From Candidatus Woesebacteria bacterium (GTDB taxonomy: Bacteria > Patescibacteriota > Microgenomatia > UBA8517): a stretch of DNA of 64,000 bases. The position numbers and the translations under genes were made by a program. The notes under the pieces were generated by a model, which saw nothing but the letters and a program-made list of their open reading frames with translations, was not told the origin of the DNA and did not search any database. The stretch spans positions 74,447 through 138,446 of the forward strand of contig CP055307.1 in assembly GCA_013374835.1 (NCBI GenBank), written 5' to 3'. Shown here piece after piece: positions 35,942-55,896 of this stretch; position 1 is the first letter of the stretch; the number at the start of each line of letters is the position of its first letter.

Positions 35942-36673
35942 ATGAAGTTCAAATTGTCTTTTCTGTTTTTGTTAACAATATTCATTTCACTCCAATCACC
36001 CAAACAAATCAACGCCCAAAACTCTTATGAATGTGCGTGGGAAGAAAGAAACGGCGTCAGCTCATGCATAATAAGCGAACATCAAGTTACCTGCGAAGAA
36101 GGCTTTTATGCAGGGGATGCTTGTGACAACATTCTAAACAAAGAAGAGTGCCTAGACGCAAAGTGGGCATGCAACCAAATCGAACCCGATCAAAATCGCC
36201 ACACATGTGTTTATACTGACACCCTAGGCTGCAGACCCACAAATACTTGTGTCTACGGCTACACTCCAAGCAATGCATGCGAAGGTTTAAACAAAGATGA
36301 GTGCTTAAACGTAAGCCCTCAATCTTGCGTTCTTAAAACAAAACCTATTATCCGCGCAAAAGAAAAACTAATTTGTATCACAAACGAGGGTACGGAGGGA
36401 ATAAACTCAGCAATCGGATGCATCTCAATCTCAAATGAAAACGAAAATCTTATCTTTCTATTAACATGGGCCGGCGGAATTTTGGGGGGCGTAGGAATTA
36501 TCTTAATTATCTATGGAGGGTTTTTAATCATGTCGTCGCAAGGAGACAGAAACAAAGCAGCCCTGGGAAAAGAAGTAATATTTTCAGCCGTTATGGGGAT
36601 CGTTTTTATCATAATATCAGCCTTTCTTTTAAGAACACTCGGAGCTGATATACTAAATCTACCCGATTTTTAA
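35942..36673 (+). CDS. pilin-like protein, subfamily A (T4SS VirB2/TrbC-like 2-TM module) with N-terminal Cys-rich extension
   Basis: Signal peptide and a ~130-aa domain with 14 Cys. Conserved INSAIGCISI, TM1 GGILGGVGIILIIYGGFLIMSSQGD, then TM2. Confidence 0.55.
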   Translation: MKFKLSFLFLLTIFISLQSPKQINAQNSYECAWEERNGVSSCIISEHQVTCEEGFYAGDACDNILNKEECLDAKWACNQIEPDQNRHTCVYTDTLGCRPTNTCVYGYTPSNACEGLNKDECLNVSPQSCVLKTKPIIRAKEKLICITNEGTEGINSAIGCISISNENENLIFLLTWAGGILGGVGIILIIYGGFLIMSSQGDRNKAALGKEVIFSAVMGIVFIIISAFLLRTLGADILNLPDF

Positions 36674-36677
36674 AGCC

Positions 36678-37088
36678 ATGAAAAAAATTTTTCTTGCTTT
36701 TATATTTTTCAATCTACTTTTTTTTGTAAACAGCAACAGAGTTTTCGCCGCTCTTCCCGACCCCGAACTGGAATTTACCGTTAGAGAAAACCTAAAATGC
36801 CAAGGGGGAACGGGAATAAATACAGCAATAGGGTGCGTTCCGATTAACAACGAAGAAGCCCTGCTCGAATTCCTCCTTAGATGGTTTATCGGAATTGCAG
36901 GAGCAATAGCAATATCCCTAATTGTCTATGCAGGTATCCAAATAATGACCTCTTCAGGAAATCCTGAAAAGGTAGGTGCAGGAAAACAACTTCTCACCGC
37001 AGCCGTCGGAGGAATTGTATTTTTAATCTTTTCGGTTTTTATCCTAAGACTCTTTGGAGTCGAAATTCTTAAACTGCCGGGATTTTAG
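36678..37088 (+). CDS. pilin-like protein, subfamily A (short form)
   Basis: Signal peptide. GINTAIGCVPI, then TM1 ...IYAGIQIMTSSGNPEK..., then TM2. Ends LKLPGF, like 35942..36673. Confidence 0.55.
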   Translation: MKKIFLAFIFFNLLFFVNSNRVFAALPDPELEFTVRENLKCQGGTGINTAIGCVPINNEEALLEFLLRWFIGIAGAIAISLIVYAGIQIMTSSGNPEKVGAGKQLLTAAVGGIVFLIFSVFILRLFGVEILKLPGF

Positions 37089-37091
37089 TTA

Positions 37092-53016: not shown

Positions 53017-53017
53017 C

Positions 53018-55381
53018 ATGGCATTTAAAATTCCAGAAAGAAAAGAAGGATTAATAAGGCTTAGGAACCAACTGCTCAAGGCAGCAGAATCCGCATCGAA
53101 AAGCAGCGCTCTTCCTATAGAACTGACAGAGCTTTTAAACAAAGCTTGGCTTATCACCAACAGCATAGATATCAATCCTGAAATTTTAAACAAACTTCCT
53201 CAATCTGCTCAAGTCGACCTTGCTATAAAGATGTCTAAAATAGCTGCCTCTCAACTTAACATTATGATAACAACCCCCTCGCTCTTTGAAATGCTGTTAG
53301 ACGAAAATAGAAAAAAAACAACATCCCCGGACCTCCAATCAGATCTAAAAGAAGCTTTAAAAAATCTCGAAAAAATCATTAAAGACCCTCAAAAATATGG
53401 TATTGACCCAAAAGAAGCACTAACCATTGCTAGCAAACTTCTTAATAACCCGGATCTTGACCCAAAAGATAAAGAAAATCTTGACGAGTTAATAAACGAG
53501 GTTCTGGAGGCAACAAAAACAGTTCAAAATATCGAAGATATCAGTTTTATTCTTTCCCCCGAGCAAAAACAAATAGAAGAAAAAATAAATATTTTTACTA
53601 ACGCCACCGATCAAGGAAAAAACGTACAAAACGAAAAACTGGAACTCGCACAAGTAGCTGGTTTAAGCTCAATACTGCTAAGCCAAAAACAAAATCTCAT
53701 TTCAAAAGCCAAAGTCTTCATAAAAACAACCTATAACTTAATGTACCAAAGACTGATTTCAAAAGGAGGTGCTGCTGCAGCCATCGCTTTTCTCGCCGAT
53801 AAAGCAATCAAAACTGTTGCAAGAGTTGCAAGCATGGCAAAAAGAGCCACTCAAGGAAATATTGGAGACTTAGCGCTACTTAGTGTTTTTTTTGCCGGTT
53901 TTTTAATAGGCGGTCCAATCGGCGCAGCACTCATGCTTTTTGCAATAAGTCCAAGGTTCAGAAAAATAGTAATAACAGGCCTTTTTATATCTCTCACACT
54001 TATCCTAACAGAAATGCTTATTGCTCTTTTGGTTATCATTATTTCTATCTCAATAATTCTTTTTATAATCAATTCAGGAGCCTATATAGTTCCCCAAGGA
54101 TCACCGCTTCAAGGAGAAGAATTAACCCAAGGTATAGTAGCATCGGGAACCTGTCCCCTAGTTTCCAGTTGTCCTAAAATCGACTCAGGCTCCTATAATC
54201 CGGAAAACGAAACGGGTCACGGAAGCAACTCTTATTGGGGTTCTGCAACAAATGCCTGTACTTATTCCATCCCCATTGACCCAATGGGGGGTTGTCTTGG
54301 CCCCGATCCTACAAACGGAAGAAATTTCTGCTCTTCTGCTCCAACAAGATGCTCTGTTTACGGATACGCTGCAGACGTGGTTGATTGCAATGGGGTTTAT
54401 GCAGACGTAGCTCTCCCCTATCTTTGTGATCCTGGAAGCGAAACGTGTAGCCCCTTAACTTGGCGCTTTATTGACGGATGGTACAACTGCCAAGGAGCAA
54501 GCGTCCCAAATAAAGCATCCTGCACAAGAGAAGGGTGGGGATATGGTGCAATCTTTGAGGCAATAGGAAACGGACACATTTGGCGCATCTACCTTAACCA
54601 CATTAGCCAACTTCCCTCGGGCAAAACTTATCAATCAGGCTCTGTAATCGCCCAGCTCACCAACGAACTCATTCCAGGACATCTCCATGTCGAGCTTAAC
54701 ATCGATGGTTTTGCAGTTAAACCGGACTTTCTCTGCTCGGGAGAAGGCTCTGGAATAACACCTCCCGTAAATACAGACCTTGAAGGTTGGTACGTCACAG
54801 TAAATCCGGAAAATCTTATAGCATCAAACCCGCTTTCAGAAAACGAGGTTGGTATTAATTCCTGTACTTGGATGAGCTCAAAAGGTCTATCTGCTGCCAT
54901 TAATGCCAATTTTTACTTAAACGCAAACACTCCAATAGGCCACGCAGGTTATAATGGCAATTTTACAAATTACCCACCAGATGAGGGTTTTTCAGCCTAC
55001 AACTTTAAAACTCTCGTTGTGACAGAGAGCAACCAAGCTCAAATTGTAAAACACTCAAACTTGCCGGACAATCTTACAGGCCAAGGTTATAAACTTGCTG
55101 TTACAGGAGTTGCATATAATAACATTACAGGTTCAGGCCCCAAAACAGTCGTTGGAATCAAAAATAATCGCGTCTATTTAATAATATTAAGAAGCGCAAC
55201 GGCAGTTCAAGTACAACAGTTTATGGAATCTGTATTGGGAGTAGACGACGGATTCTTTCTTGATAGCGGCGCATCAACAACTCTATGTAACTCAAACGGC
55301 ATAGTCTTTTCCGGCCAGAATCCACCAAGAAATATTCCCTCGCACATAGGAATTACAAGCGGTAGTTTTATCAGGTTATAA
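53018..55381 (+). CDS. membrane-anchored cell-wall hydrolase: M23 peptidase-like plus phosphodiester-glycosidase (NAGPA/DUF2233)-like domains
   Basis: Long Lys/Glu-rich cytoplasmic N-terminus, TM helices (~300-360), GHIWRIYLNH...GHLHVELN (M23 HxH), then C-terminal ...FFLDSGASTTL, like the LDGGGSS block of phosphodiester glycosidases. Start taken at ATG 53018; the track uses TTG 53009. Confidence 0.5.
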   Translation: MAFKIPERKEGLIRLRNQLLKAAESASKSSALPIELTELLNKAWLITNSIDINPEILNKLPQSAQVDLAIKMSKIAASQLNIMITTPSLFEMLLDENRKKTTSPDLQSDLKEALKNLEKIIKDPQKYGIDPKEALTIASKLLNNPDLDPKDKENLDELINEVLEATKTVQNIEDISFILSPEQKQIEEKINIFTNATDQGKNVQNEKLELAQVAGLSSILLSQKQNLISKAKVFIKTTYNLMYQRLISKGGAAAAIAFLADKAIKTVARVASMAKRATQGNIGDLALLSVFFAGFLIGGPIGAALMLFAISPRFRKIVITGLFISLTLILTEMLIALLVIIISISIILFIINSGAYIVPQGSPLQGEELTQGIVASGTCPLVSSCPKIDSGSYNPENETGHGSNSYWGSATNACTYSIPIDPMGGCLGPDPTNGRNFCSSAPTRCSVYGYAADVVDCNGVYADVALPYLCDPGSETCSPLTWRFIDGWYNCQGASVPNKASCTREGWGYGAIFEAIGNGHIWRIYLNHISQLPSGKTYQSGSVIAQLTNELIPGHLHVELNIDGFAVKPDFLCSGEGSGITPPVNTDLEGWYVTVNPENLIASNPLSENEVGINSCTWMSSKGLSAAINANFYLNANTPIGHAGYNGNFTNYPPDEGFSAYNFKTLVVTESNQAQIVKHSNLPDNLTGQGYKLAVTGVAYNNITGSGPKTVVGIKNNRVYLIILRSATAVQVQQFMESVLGVDDGFFLDSGASTTLCNSNGIVFSGQNPPRNIPSHIGITSGSFIRL

Positions 55382-55389
55382 TAAAAGAG

Positions 55390-55896
55390 ATGAAAAATTT
55401 TATTTTACAGATAATTCAAAAGCGCGCTAAACTGCTTGTATTCCTAATATTTCTAATTTCTTTGGTTTTACTAATTACCCTACTATCAAATCGTCCAAAA
55501 GAATCTCCTACAACAAGCGCTCCCCCCACTTCAGCGTCTATTTCAATTGAATACGGCGACCTCCCAATGCCTCAAATATTTCCTAAATCCGGCAAATTAA
55601 ACTGGGGAGAAACAAAAAACGCAATAACACTTAAATTCGATAAAACAATCAACAAATCAAGCGTTCAAATAAGCTCTCAGCCTCCAAAAAATTTCAAAAT
55701 ATCCACGCTTCCTGATGATCTCGGAAGGATTATTATCACTCCCCTAACACCATGGGAAACTGGAAAAACTTATAAAATTACGATTTTTAAAGGCATAAAA
55801 ACCGCCTTGCAAGAACCTTTAATGCTTAAAGAGGATATAAATCTCGAGTATGAAATACTTTCTCCAACAAGGCCAAACTACGACAGACCAGCCTAA
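55390..55896 (+). CDS. small bitopic membrane protein with an Ig-like extracytoplasmic domain
   Basis: N-terminal TM LLVFLIFLISLVLLITLL, then a Ser/Thr/Pro linker. Last gene of the locus. Confidence 0.35.
   Translation: MKNFILQIIQKRAKLLVFLIFLISLVLLITLLSNRPKESPTTSAPPTSASISIEYGDLPMPQIFPKSGKLNWGETKNAITLKFDKTINKSSVQISSQPPKNFKISTLPDDLGRIIITPLTPWETGKTYKITIFKGIKTALQEPLMLKEDINLEYEILSPTRPNYDRPA

Follow-up and report, generated by a model that had tools for sequence, protein, structure and literature searches.

A fixed set of eight VirB2-like pilin classes in a chromosomal type IV secretion cluster next to dnaN in a Candidatus Woesebacteria bacterium

Why would a bacterium with a compact type IV secretion system (T4SS) locus keep ten genes for pilin-like proteins in it? 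The question was raised by a 64,000-nt stretch of Candidatus Woesebacteria contig CP055307.1 (positions 74,447 to 138,446; hereafter the window, in whose coordinates all positions are given), where a block at 35942-55896 carries these genes together with further components of a T4SS-like machine and ends beside dnaN. The initial annotation, made from the sequence, had considered ten pilins far beyond the usual number and had read them as antigenic or functional pilin diversification. Comparison with related genomes gave a different answer: eight distinct VirB2-like subunits make up the array as a fixed set, not a variable repertoire. The locus is a chromosomal T4SS cluster typical of ultra-small Patescibacteria, a system already described in papers of 2023-2025. 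The window adds no new kind of system; what is new here is the fixed order of eight classes and the limitation of copy-number change to the first of them.

The description of the ten small proteins as paralogous pilin-like proteins with two transmembrane segments was borne out. Far from missing the T4SS pilin models, all ten matched PF18895 (T4SS_pilin; gathering score 26.6 bits), and eight of the ten reached the gathering score. Pilins 1 and 7 fell narrowly below it (Table 1), and both clustered with clear orthologs. PF18895 was the sole family matched, since the classical VirB2/TrbC model PF04956 gave no match for any of the ten, and no prepilin peptidase motif was found in them. In hydropathy plots and alignments, every pilin had two C-terminal hydrophobic helices joined by a short basic loop with the conserved sequence SGG(D/N)PxK. 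Pairwise identity within the array averaged 25%, with a maximum of 51%. Pilins 1-3 carry a Sec-type signal peptide and an ectodomain ahead of the pilin core; the ectodomain is Cys-rich in pilins 1 and 3, and that of pilin 2 contains a conserved INTAIGC motif. The core of pilin 2 is 45-51% identical to those of pilins 1 and 3. Pilins 4-10 have merely a hydrophilic N-terminal tail of ~30 residues. The start of pilin 7 is most likely the ATG at 38921, which overlaps the pilin 6 stop codon (ATGA), and not position 38792 of the longest open reading frame (ORF).

For comparison, 80 related loci (numbered L001-L080) were retrieved with the VirB6-like protein family described below as the probe; nearly all came from Woesebacteria or Microgenomates. 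The nearest relative, Ca. Woesebacteria UBA1430 (L001; 90-96% nucleotide identity), was used for pairwise comparison, and its identity agrees with the earlier view that the window comes from an organism of the Candidate Phyla Radiation type. Orthology was analysed by clustering 402 pilins from 49 complete Microgenomatia arrays. The clusters tracked array position, giving eight positional orthogroups in fixed order. The eight-class order was identical in 37 of the 49 arrays, and in 8 more the sole deviation was a duplicated or triplicated first class. Arrays typically held eight genes, with a range of 7-10, and published arrays hold 2-11, so that ten pilins are not far beyond what is usual within the clade. 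Copy-number variation was confined to the first class (1-3 copies), of which the window has three, and these copies account entirely for its surplus over eight. Orthogroup 'C' (pilin 4) was present as a single copy in 49 of 49 arrays. The class of pilin 6, the most divergent, formed its own cluster even at coarse thresholds and kept a constant position. Classes 6 and 7, though similar, were separate orthogroups, with 46 of the 49 best matches of A1 being the A1 of other genomes. The class of pilin 9, a candidate for the major subunit, was the most conserved, with an identity that averaged 62% between genomes.

Similarity was also distributed in a manner expected of orthologs. For 398 of the 402 pilins, the best non-self match lay in a different genome, and the normalised similarity score was 0.51 within the same class across genomes versus 0.21 between different classes within a genome. 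Pilins 4, 5, 8, 9 and 10 were 100% identical to those of L001, and pilin 7 was 99% identical. Altogether, the seven core classes showed 95-100% identity to L001 (dnaN, 92%; VirB4, 96%), making the core pilins the most conserved proteins of the locus in this comparison. The one-to-one positional orthology and the near-identity to L001 indicate that the paralogy is ancient and that the subunits are under strong constraint. Recent tandem expansion of the pilin genes was considered as well and is ruled out by the orthology analysis of the 49 arrays. First-class pilins ranged from 103 to 456 aa across genomes.

Variation between close relatives was found elsewhere. In a megablast comparison, the window and L001 were collinear except for two gaps, at 37105-37545 and 47096-48717. 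The first gap corresponds to the Cys-rich ectodomain of pilin 3, which is unrelated in sequence in L001, with flanking DNA 92-96% identical; residues 152-251 of pilin 3 alone aligned with the L001 ortholog (90% identity). The second gap covers the last ~30 codons of the VirB6-like gene and the C-terminal two-thirds of the antisense gene. The pilin 3 ectodomain and the antisense gene were the only parts that differed between close relatives.

The position of the antisense gene is itself a conserved slot. In 74 of the 80 loci it held an ORF of 400 aa or more on the minus strand, whose end lay at a median distance of 17 nt from the stop codon of the VirB6-like gene; 68 of these 74 slot proteins had no membrane-like segment. 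The slot proteins fell into at least nine unrelated sequence clusters. Genome pairs with VirB6-like proteins 76-83% identical can have unrelated slot proteins, and in close relatives the slot protein was wholly different or had the N-terminus alone in common. No Pfam domain was found in the 15 slot proteins tested, and the antisense protein of the window had no match in NCBIfam or PADLOC, nor in the PDB by sequence or profile. Comparisons between slot clusters with hhalign found no similarity, using cluster alignments that were poor (14% column identity). A positively charged C-terminus was significant overall but driven by one cluster, and is not used as evidence. Possible roles of the slot protein are effector, specificity factor and regulator. 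Between the antisense gene and prgI, a divergent spacer of 136 nt (49303-49438) contains the region's two best promoter-like sites, one on the minus strand (49353-49324; 11 of 12 matches, extended TG) and one on the plus strand (49379-49406). Overall, the promoter and terminator scan performed no better than on shuffled sequence, and the divergent pair at 49324-49406 was its only plausible result; with this limit, the arrangement suggests that the block comprises three or more transcription units.

Table 1. Features of the T4SS block and its flanks, in window coordinates
Feature	Coordinates	Strand	Length (aa)	Basis and remarks
Secreted SpoIID-domain protein	34199-35884	-	561	PF08486, E 1.9e-14
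Nine small ORFs (pilins 1-9)	35942-40068	+		ORF map
Pilin 1, first class	35942-36673	+	243	PF18895 26.3 bits; orthogroup 'B'; signal peptide, 14 Cys
Pilin 2, first class	36678-37088	+	136	PF18895 32.8 bits; signal peptide, short ectodomain
Pilin 3, first class	37092-37847	+	251	PF18895 33.6 bits; signal peptide, 20 Cys
Pilin 4, second class	37878-38234	+	118	PF18895 41 bits; no signal peptide; orthogroup 'C'
Pilin 5, third class	38240-38584	+	114	PF18895 27 bits; orthogroup 'D'
Pilin 6, fourth class	38589-38924	+	111	PF18895 33.7 bits
Pilin 7, fifth class	38921-39283	+	120	PF18895 25.0 bits; orthogroup 'F'
Pilin 8, sixth class	39286-39630	+	114	PF18895 35.8 bits; orthogroup 'A1'
Pilin 9, seventh class	39697-40068	+	123	PF18895 42.6 bits
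Polytopic GT-C-type protein (PMT_2-like)	40153-41601	+	482	profile homology; between pilin classes 7 and 8
Pilin 10, eighth (last) class	41644-41976	+	110	PF18895 37.7 bits; orthogroup 'G'
Secreted Cys-rich protein	41995-45543	+	1182	signal peptide, 36 Cys, lysozyme-like C-terminus
Polytopic protein, VirB6-like fold	45575-47188	+	537	predicted structure
Antisense soluble protein	47200-49302	-	700	convergent with VirB6-like gene
PrgI/VirB3-like membrane protein	49439-50416	+	325	PF12666
TrsD/TraD-like protein	50418-51119	+	233	NF041427
VirB4-family ATPase	51106-53016	+	636	NF045971, P-loop_TraG
Membrane-anchored wall hydrolase, NAGPA C-terminus	53009-55381	+	790	NAGPA match
Bitopic protein, Big_5 Ig-like domain	55390-55896	+	168	PF13205
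dnaN	55905-57008	-		translation; convergent with block
AT-rich dnaA-dnaN spacer with DnaA boxes	57009-57224			composition, box sites
dnaA	57225-58592	-		translation

The ORF map placed all listed ORFs of the block on the plus strand with the sole exception of the antisense gene, as annotated at first. In domain-model searches, no relaxase, integrase/recombinase or VirB7/9/10/11 domain was detected in any block ORF, which agrees with the initial annotation, and no coupling protein was detected within the block. Rfam searches found no RNA element inside it. A comparison of dnaN-proximal regions, which had been proposed as a check, was run and revealed a conserved gene order across the relatives: a bPH protein (-), SpoIID (-), 8-10 pilins, the 1182-aa-type protein, the VirB6-like protein, the antisense gene, PrgI, TrsD and VirB4. 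Where the fetched sequence extended far enough, VirB4 was followed by a large plus-strand ORF, a small ORF and dnaN (-). This order with its SpoIID and dnaN (-) flanks was seen in dozens of Microgenomatia genomes, indicating that the locus is vertically inherited and not an island. The bPH_2 membrane protein and the secreted SpoIID-domain protein, which has a coiled-coil N-terminus, are the divergent neighbours upstream of the array (33497-35884, minus strand) and most related loci retain both, which may have a linked function as a third wall-remodelling enzyme.

The membrane-bound parts of the machine were assigned with different degrees of certainty. The putative VirB3-like protein was confirmed as PrgI (PF12666, 33.6 bits; cut-off 27); it has a Pro/Gln-rich linker and a C-terminal beta-sandwich domain, and showed a weak CarboxypepD_reg match. 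The 636-aa VirB4 matched NF045971 (conju_CD1110) with 381 bits (cut-off 325) and P-loop_TraG with an E-value of 7.7e-33, and retains Walker A (GAGKS) and Walker B (VVDEAW) motifs. Its best scores were obtained with conjugation ATPase models (the CD1110 family, Mbov_0397 and TraC); CedB and CedD, ATPases of DNA import in archaea, also showed weak similarity to it, with scores far under the cut-offs. The 233-aa protein encoded upstream matched the TrsD model NF041427 over positions 14-200 of 201 (E 1.4e-7; 31.6 bits, curated cut-off 200), and positions 104-290 of the VirB4_plasma model (E 6.8e-9). Judged by these matches, it corresponds to the N-terminal region of VirB4 and has a gene of its own. 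VirB4 had been described as split into two ORFs. The ATPase is indeed present, and in place of a split gene there is a conserved trsD-virB4 gene pair: a separate trsD ORF (216-288 aa) lies upstream of virB4 in 59 of 61 related loci, with a spacing of -104 to +219 nt and with frames that vary among loci. A frameshifted or pseudogenised VirB4 was ruled out by this separation and varied spacing. A separate TrsD next to virB4 is a published hallmark, with 1,664 TrsD genes adjoining virB4 in Patescibacteria (PMC12102498).

The 537-aa polytopic protein was harder to place. It matched nothing in Pfam or NCBIfam, nor in a profile search of the PDB, and none of its more than 1000 homologs carried a Pfam domain. 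VirB6/TrbL and PrgH models matched none of 36 family members at E-values up to 1. In its AlphaFold model (pLDDT 73), the five best Foldseek matches in the PDB were all TrwI/VirB6 of plasmid R388 (probability 0.87-0.97, at modest E-values of 0.05-0.29), and DotA was also among the best structural matches. Given the agreement of two methods and the conserved position of the gene, a VirB6-like role was accepted: the protein appears, with modest confidence in the predicted structure, to be VirB6-like in fold and role, as annotated, while family membership by sequence was not accepted. With PrgI above its cut-off and the VirB6 fold supported, VirB4 is not the sole recognisable T4SS part. VirB6 was reported to be scarce in Microgenomatia, "suggesting extreme sequence divergence" (PMC12102498); on the basis of the structural model, this family is a good candidate for the VirB6 reported missing there, and the comparison thereby supplies a VirB6 candidate for Microgenomatia.

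Two large proteins of the block are probable wall enzymes. The 1182-aa protein has the signal peptide and Cys-rich composition claimed for it (Table 1), and direct searches of Pfam, NCBIfam and PDB sequences were empty. Its homologs are usually 700-800 aa long, with a conserved core corresponding to residues about 290-1182, and several end in a PF18896 (SLT_3) domain. In the window protein, residues about 1000-1165 form a lysozyme-like C-terminal domain with a nearly invariant candidate catalytic Glu (Glu1060), and the protein is thus a candidate VirB1-type wall glycosidase. The first ~290 residues (41995-42870) are a variable, exchangeable module, which in other homologs (P0207 and P0190) is a NAGPA or GH5 cellulase domain; in this window, NAGPA sits on the hydrolase encoded after virB4 and not on the 1182-aa protein. 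That hydrolase, of 790 aa, begins with a charged region, followed by a transmembrane segment and an M23-like middle domain, and ends in a NAGPA phosphodiester glycosidase domain (41.6 bits; cut-off 25). A large plus-strand ORF follows virB4 in most related loci, and the middle domain is common to the post-virB4 proteins of L029, L065, L071 and L005. In the PDB, its profile found M23 peptidases weakly (E 0.33-0.42), with matches in the C-terminal half; of the zinc motifs, HLHxE is conserved and HxxxD is absent with YGYAxD in its place, and Pfam gave no M23 match for this domain. Of the proposed M23/NAGPA-like wall hydrolase, the NAGPA part was thus confirmed and the M23 part has support at the motif level only. 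The small bitopic Ig-like protein at the end of the block was verified by its Big_5 domain (PF13205, 31 bits; cut-off 23.6), and homologs occupy the same position in L001, L029 and L065.

The 482-aa polytopic protein encoded inside the array showed no direct Pfam match even at E-values up to 10 and no NCBIfam or PDB match, and precomputed Pfam annotation of its homologs was empty. Its family is small, with about 90 representatives among 1.8 billion proteins. In the second tier of matches to the family profile in this collection (E 1e-11 to 1e-7), six of ten proteins tested were PMT_2 proteins. Alignment of the family with PMT_2-bearing proteins by hhalign extended over 373 columns (probability 99.5%, E 1.2e-22) and paired the loop-1 acidic motif YDE with WxDE and HPPGFY with HPPLYY. 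This profile-level homology establishes the embedded GT-C glycosyltransferase that had been annotated. GT-C homologs (26-41% identity) occupy the same slot between pilin classes 7 and 8 in L001, L081 and L086, and in L083 a homolog heads the pilin array; overall, 6 of 8 contexts examined were in or beside pilin arrays, and two members were found elsewhere. An Acyl_transf_3 gene accompanies the insert in two loci (L081, 11612-12616, minus strand; L086, 10543-11580, minus strand), and the L086 insert also has a further 528-aa ORF, which suggests that the insertion slot is reused for a small module of glycan modification. From this genomic association, the GT-C protein probably modifies exposed pilin parts in this lineage, and the small family tied to pilin arrays is a candidate pilin glycosyltransferase. 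Pilin glycosylation enzymes are likewise encoded next to pilin genes in Pseudomonas (TfpW, a GT-C enzyme, and TfpO/PilO). Those enzymes act on type IV pili, whereas the polytopic GT-C described here lies within a cluster of T4SS-family pilins, and their glycosylation is suggested by gene position.

How does this locus compare with what has been reported? In Southlakia, a T4SS cluster with several pilin genes but neither coupling protein nor relaxase was essential for epibiotic growth (Wang et al. 2023, PMC10633639), the one species in which the importance of a Patescibacteria T4SS has been tested. The VirB4 proteins of Patescibacteria form their own monophyletic clade, and the TrsD, PrgI and VirB6 content of their clusters has been described (Quinonero-Coronel et al. 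2025, PMC12102498). The VirB4 encoded in the window would be expected to belong to this clade, since the organism is a Woesebacterium and the locus is syntenic across Microgenomatia. The same study reported 441 VirB2 arrays of 2-11 genes, especially abundant in Microgenomatia, T4SS clusters near dnaA/dnaN, and relaxases in just 103 Patescibacteria genomes, rarely near virB4. It also reported the same low identities between paralogs and proposed antigenic or host-range variation for the arrays; orthology between arrays, the hypervariable antisense slot and the glycosyltransferase are not mentioned in it (PMC12102498). A 2025 review repeats the description of the system (PMC12857230), and reviews call the role of the Patescibacteria T4SS completely unknown (PMC11665869, PMC12857230). 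For a cultured representative, a 2026 preprint reports tubular structures, possibly T4SS pili, at the parasite-host interface and the acquisition of host RNA (bioRxiv 10.64898/2026.06.21.733656).

The T4SS of Southlakia epibionticum ML1 (SEML1_0006-0019) and Nanosynbacter TM7x share with the present locus the VirB4 type, a separate upstream TrsD, PrgI/VirB3, VirB6, hydrolases downstream of virB4, a divergent PF18895 pilin array, the dnaA/dnaN position and a cluster without relaxase or coupling protein. Southlakia has six pilins, whereas the Microgenomatia form found here has eight pilin classes (ten genes in this array), a VirB6 too divergent for hidden Markov models, a 1182-aa lysozyme-type protein upstream of VirB6 and a GT-C gene in the array. 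The conjugation systems of the mating-pair formation type FATA (MPF-FATA), such as those of pGO1/pSK41 (TrsC, TrsD, TrsE), pIP501 and pCF10 (PrgH, PrgI, PrgJ, PrgK), also combine a TrsD and VirB4 pair with a PrgI-type VirB3, a polytopic VirB6-type protein and a membrane-anchored multidomain wall hydrolase, with no outer-membrane core. They reside on mobile elements, with a relaxase, a coupling protein and surface adhesins instead of pilins; the locus described here is chromosomal and syntenic, with ten pilin genes and neither relaxase nor coupling protein in the cluster. Taken together, the VirB3-, VirB4- and VirB6-like parts, the wall hydrolases and the VirB2-like pilins, with no relaxase or integrase, agree with the earlier description as a minimal chromosomal T4SS of monoderm type. 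More distant similarities were found to genes of integrative and conjugative elements (ICEs) of Mollicutes. Pilin 9 weakly matched the Mbov_0395 pilin-like family (NCBIfam NF045849), and TrsD and VirB4 matched the N- and C-terminal parts of NF045975 (Mbov_0397); all of these scores were below curated cut-offs, and Mollicutes ICEs are mobile and have a single pilin-like gene.

We consider it fairly probable that the block encodes a T4SS derived from monoderm (MPF-FATA) conjugation machinery, without the DNA-processing parts, that makes an eight-subunit pilus-like structure for host contact. Its membrane engine would combine the ATPase pair TrsD and VirB4 with PrgI/VirB3 as the anchor and a channel protein of VirB6 fold that is highly divergent in sequence, and two hydrolases (the lysozyme-like 1182-aa protein and the membrane-anchored M23-like/NAGPA protein) would open the peptidoglycan of the cell's own wall or of the host's. 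The eight pilin classes may build one heteromeric pilus-like structure, a proposal made because the array is a fixed set in which each member has its own ortholog and position. The body of such a structure would consist of the seven core classes, and the first-class pilins, Sec-exported, with exchangeable Cys-rich ectodomains and present here in three copies, would be the surface or host-recognition part, with exposed pilin parts decorated by the GT-C enzyme. Going by the literature on cultured relatives, it most likely serves epibiotic growth, and not conjugation, as a contact pilus or a conduit to the host cell; host attachment or uptake would be a plausible function. A working model, by analogy and not by homology, may be taken from type IV pili and type II pseudopili, in which fixed sets of different small pilins, encoded in conserved order, combine one abundant subunit with specialised ones (priming, tip, adhesion); their fold and assembly ATPase are unrelated to those here.

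Several points weigh against the contact-pilus reading. A profile of the ten pilins, compared with solved structures, retrieved no VirB2 or TraA pilin and spurious membrane proteins only, and because it matches no solved pilin, the label VirB2-like rests on PF18895 and the two-helix architecture. No VirB8-like protein was identified in the block by domain-model searches, and the M23 assignment of the 790-aa protein is not significant and stands at the motif level. Heteromeric assembly is proposed from conservation patterns only, and a filament of these proteins is a prediction from the genes. Finally, a 466-aa homolog of VirD4-type coupling proteins (TrwB_AAD_bind, TraG-D_C) is encoded on the plus strand at 234-1634, 34 kb from the block, and keeps substrate export via a coupling protein possible.

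The published proposal that such genes form an expanded, diversifying repertoire for antigenic or host-range variation, as suggested for the VirB2 proteins of Bartonella and Anaplasma, appears improbable for this array. The arrays of Bartonella, Anaplasma and Rickettsia likewise place several tandem VirB2-like genes in one T4SS locus and are read as variable or antigenic; here the paralogs are ancient, ordered, one-to-one orthologous and near-invariant among close relatives. The low identity between paralogs (on average ~25%, at most 51%) could be taken as a sign of diversification, as could the first-class pilins, which vary in copy number and length and in one case had their ectodomain swapped between close relatives. 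That low identity, however, reflects ancient paralogy, with one-to-one orthologs at the same position across the 49 arrays, the best matches almost always cross-genome (398 of 402) and the core pilins the most conserved proteins of the locus relative to L001. No repeats or silent cassettes were evident, though no search aimed at them was made, and the reported essentiality of Southlakia pilin genes argues against redundancy (PMC10633639). The diversifying-repertoire reading is thus largely refuted for the seven core classes, and what survives of the diversification first proposed is the variation of the first class in copy number, length and sequence. Still less credible is that the block is a conjugative element or ICE remnant that moves DNA between cells, which we regard as very improbable. 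In its favour, conjugation ATPase models gave the best VirB4 scores, conjugative plasmids of Gram-positive bacteria have TrsD and PrgI among their components, and a coupling protein homolog is present in the window. That homolog is 34 kb distant, however, relaxase, integrase and recombinase domains were not found in the block, and the same chromosomal place, from SpoIID to dnaN, in many genomes indicates vertical inheritance. Relaxases are also rare in Patescibacteria and seldom near virB4 (103 genomes; PMC12102498).

Two further readings concern how the machine works. It may be a ComB/Ced-like importer of host nucleic acids or other macromolecules, a sub-variant of the contact-pilus reading that we hold tentatively and on the unlikely side. 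No coupling protein or relaxase is in the cluster, VirB4 shows weak similarity to CedB and CedD, Patescibacteria lack nucleotide synthesis and uptake by the T4SS has been raised as a candidate route (PMC11665869, PMC12857230), and the host RNA acquisition and interface tubular structures of the cultured representative would fit (bioRxiv 10.64898/2026.06.21.733656). On the other hand, the CedB and CedD scores are far below the cut-offs, the sequence does not tell whether the machine exports effectors or takes up host material, and the hypervariable cytoplasmic slot protein fits an exported effector at least as well. Alternatively, the pilin-like proteins could form no extracellular filament and be stoichiometric membrane subunits of the translocon, for example as a stalk or channel lining in a wall-spanning complex that stands in for VirB7/9/10 and VirB8, which we judge unlikely. 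Eight distinct, individually conserved small membrane proteins do resemble a multi-subunit complex more than a homopolymer, VirB8-like and outer-complex components were not found in the block, and the pilin profile matches no solved pilin. Nevertheless, PF18895 and the two-helix hairpin with its basic loop match the architecture of conjugative pilins, the large Sec-exported ectodomains of the first class suit surface display, and tubular structures were seen in the cultured relative. Moreover, type II and type IV pilus systems build filaments from minor and major pilins, which shows that fixed heterologous sets can do so. A more specific proposal, which is doubtful at present, is a heteromeric filament of eight non-interchangeable VirB2-like subunits, with host specificity set by the first-class ectodomains, possibly glycosylated, and by the antisense-slot protein, both exchangeable by recombination; the slot protein would then be a translocated effector or specificity factor of the machine.

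If true, an eight-subunit heteromeric filament would be an architecture unknown for any T4SS. For the array as such, a fixed structural set shifts the focus from pilin switching to the stoichiometry and placement of each class, and the pilin ectodomain and the antisense-slot protein become candidates for host specificity or effector function.

Beyond the block, the locus abuts the likely replication origin, as annotated. The gap between the last stop codon of the block and the dnaN stop codon is 8 nt, so that the block adjoins dnaN as described, with the distance corrected from 9 nt. Three perfect DnaA boxes (TTATCCACA) were found in the 64-kb window, at 57182, 57295 and 58614, all around dnaA, and rpmH, rnpA and yidC lie after dnaA. 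GC skew was negative to about 58 kb and then flat, a course that fits an origin at this place without deciding the matter; since it shows no clean sign change at dnaA within the window, the oriC call rests on gene content and DnaA boxes, by which 55905-58622 is likely the oriC region. The 20-kb block is transcribed towards this presumed origin (about 57.0-58.7 kb), on the strand with negative GC skew, and would meet the leftward replication fork head-on. At 10-35 kb the majority of genes are co-directional, and the orientation of the block relative to dnaN is conserved in related loci.

On the far side of dnaA, rpmH and rnpA, the plus strand at 59426-61947 encodes YidC (60KD_IMP) and an O-antigen-ligase-like Wzy_C membrane protein. 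YidC is a plausible insertase, from gene content, for the pilins without a signal peptide, and Wzy_C proteins include pilin O-oligosaccharyltransferases. At 2913-4442 (minus strand) and 30944-31331 (plus strand), the window also contains a 16S rRNA gene without an adjacent 23S gene and a tmRNA gene, and nine tRNA genes are present in it.

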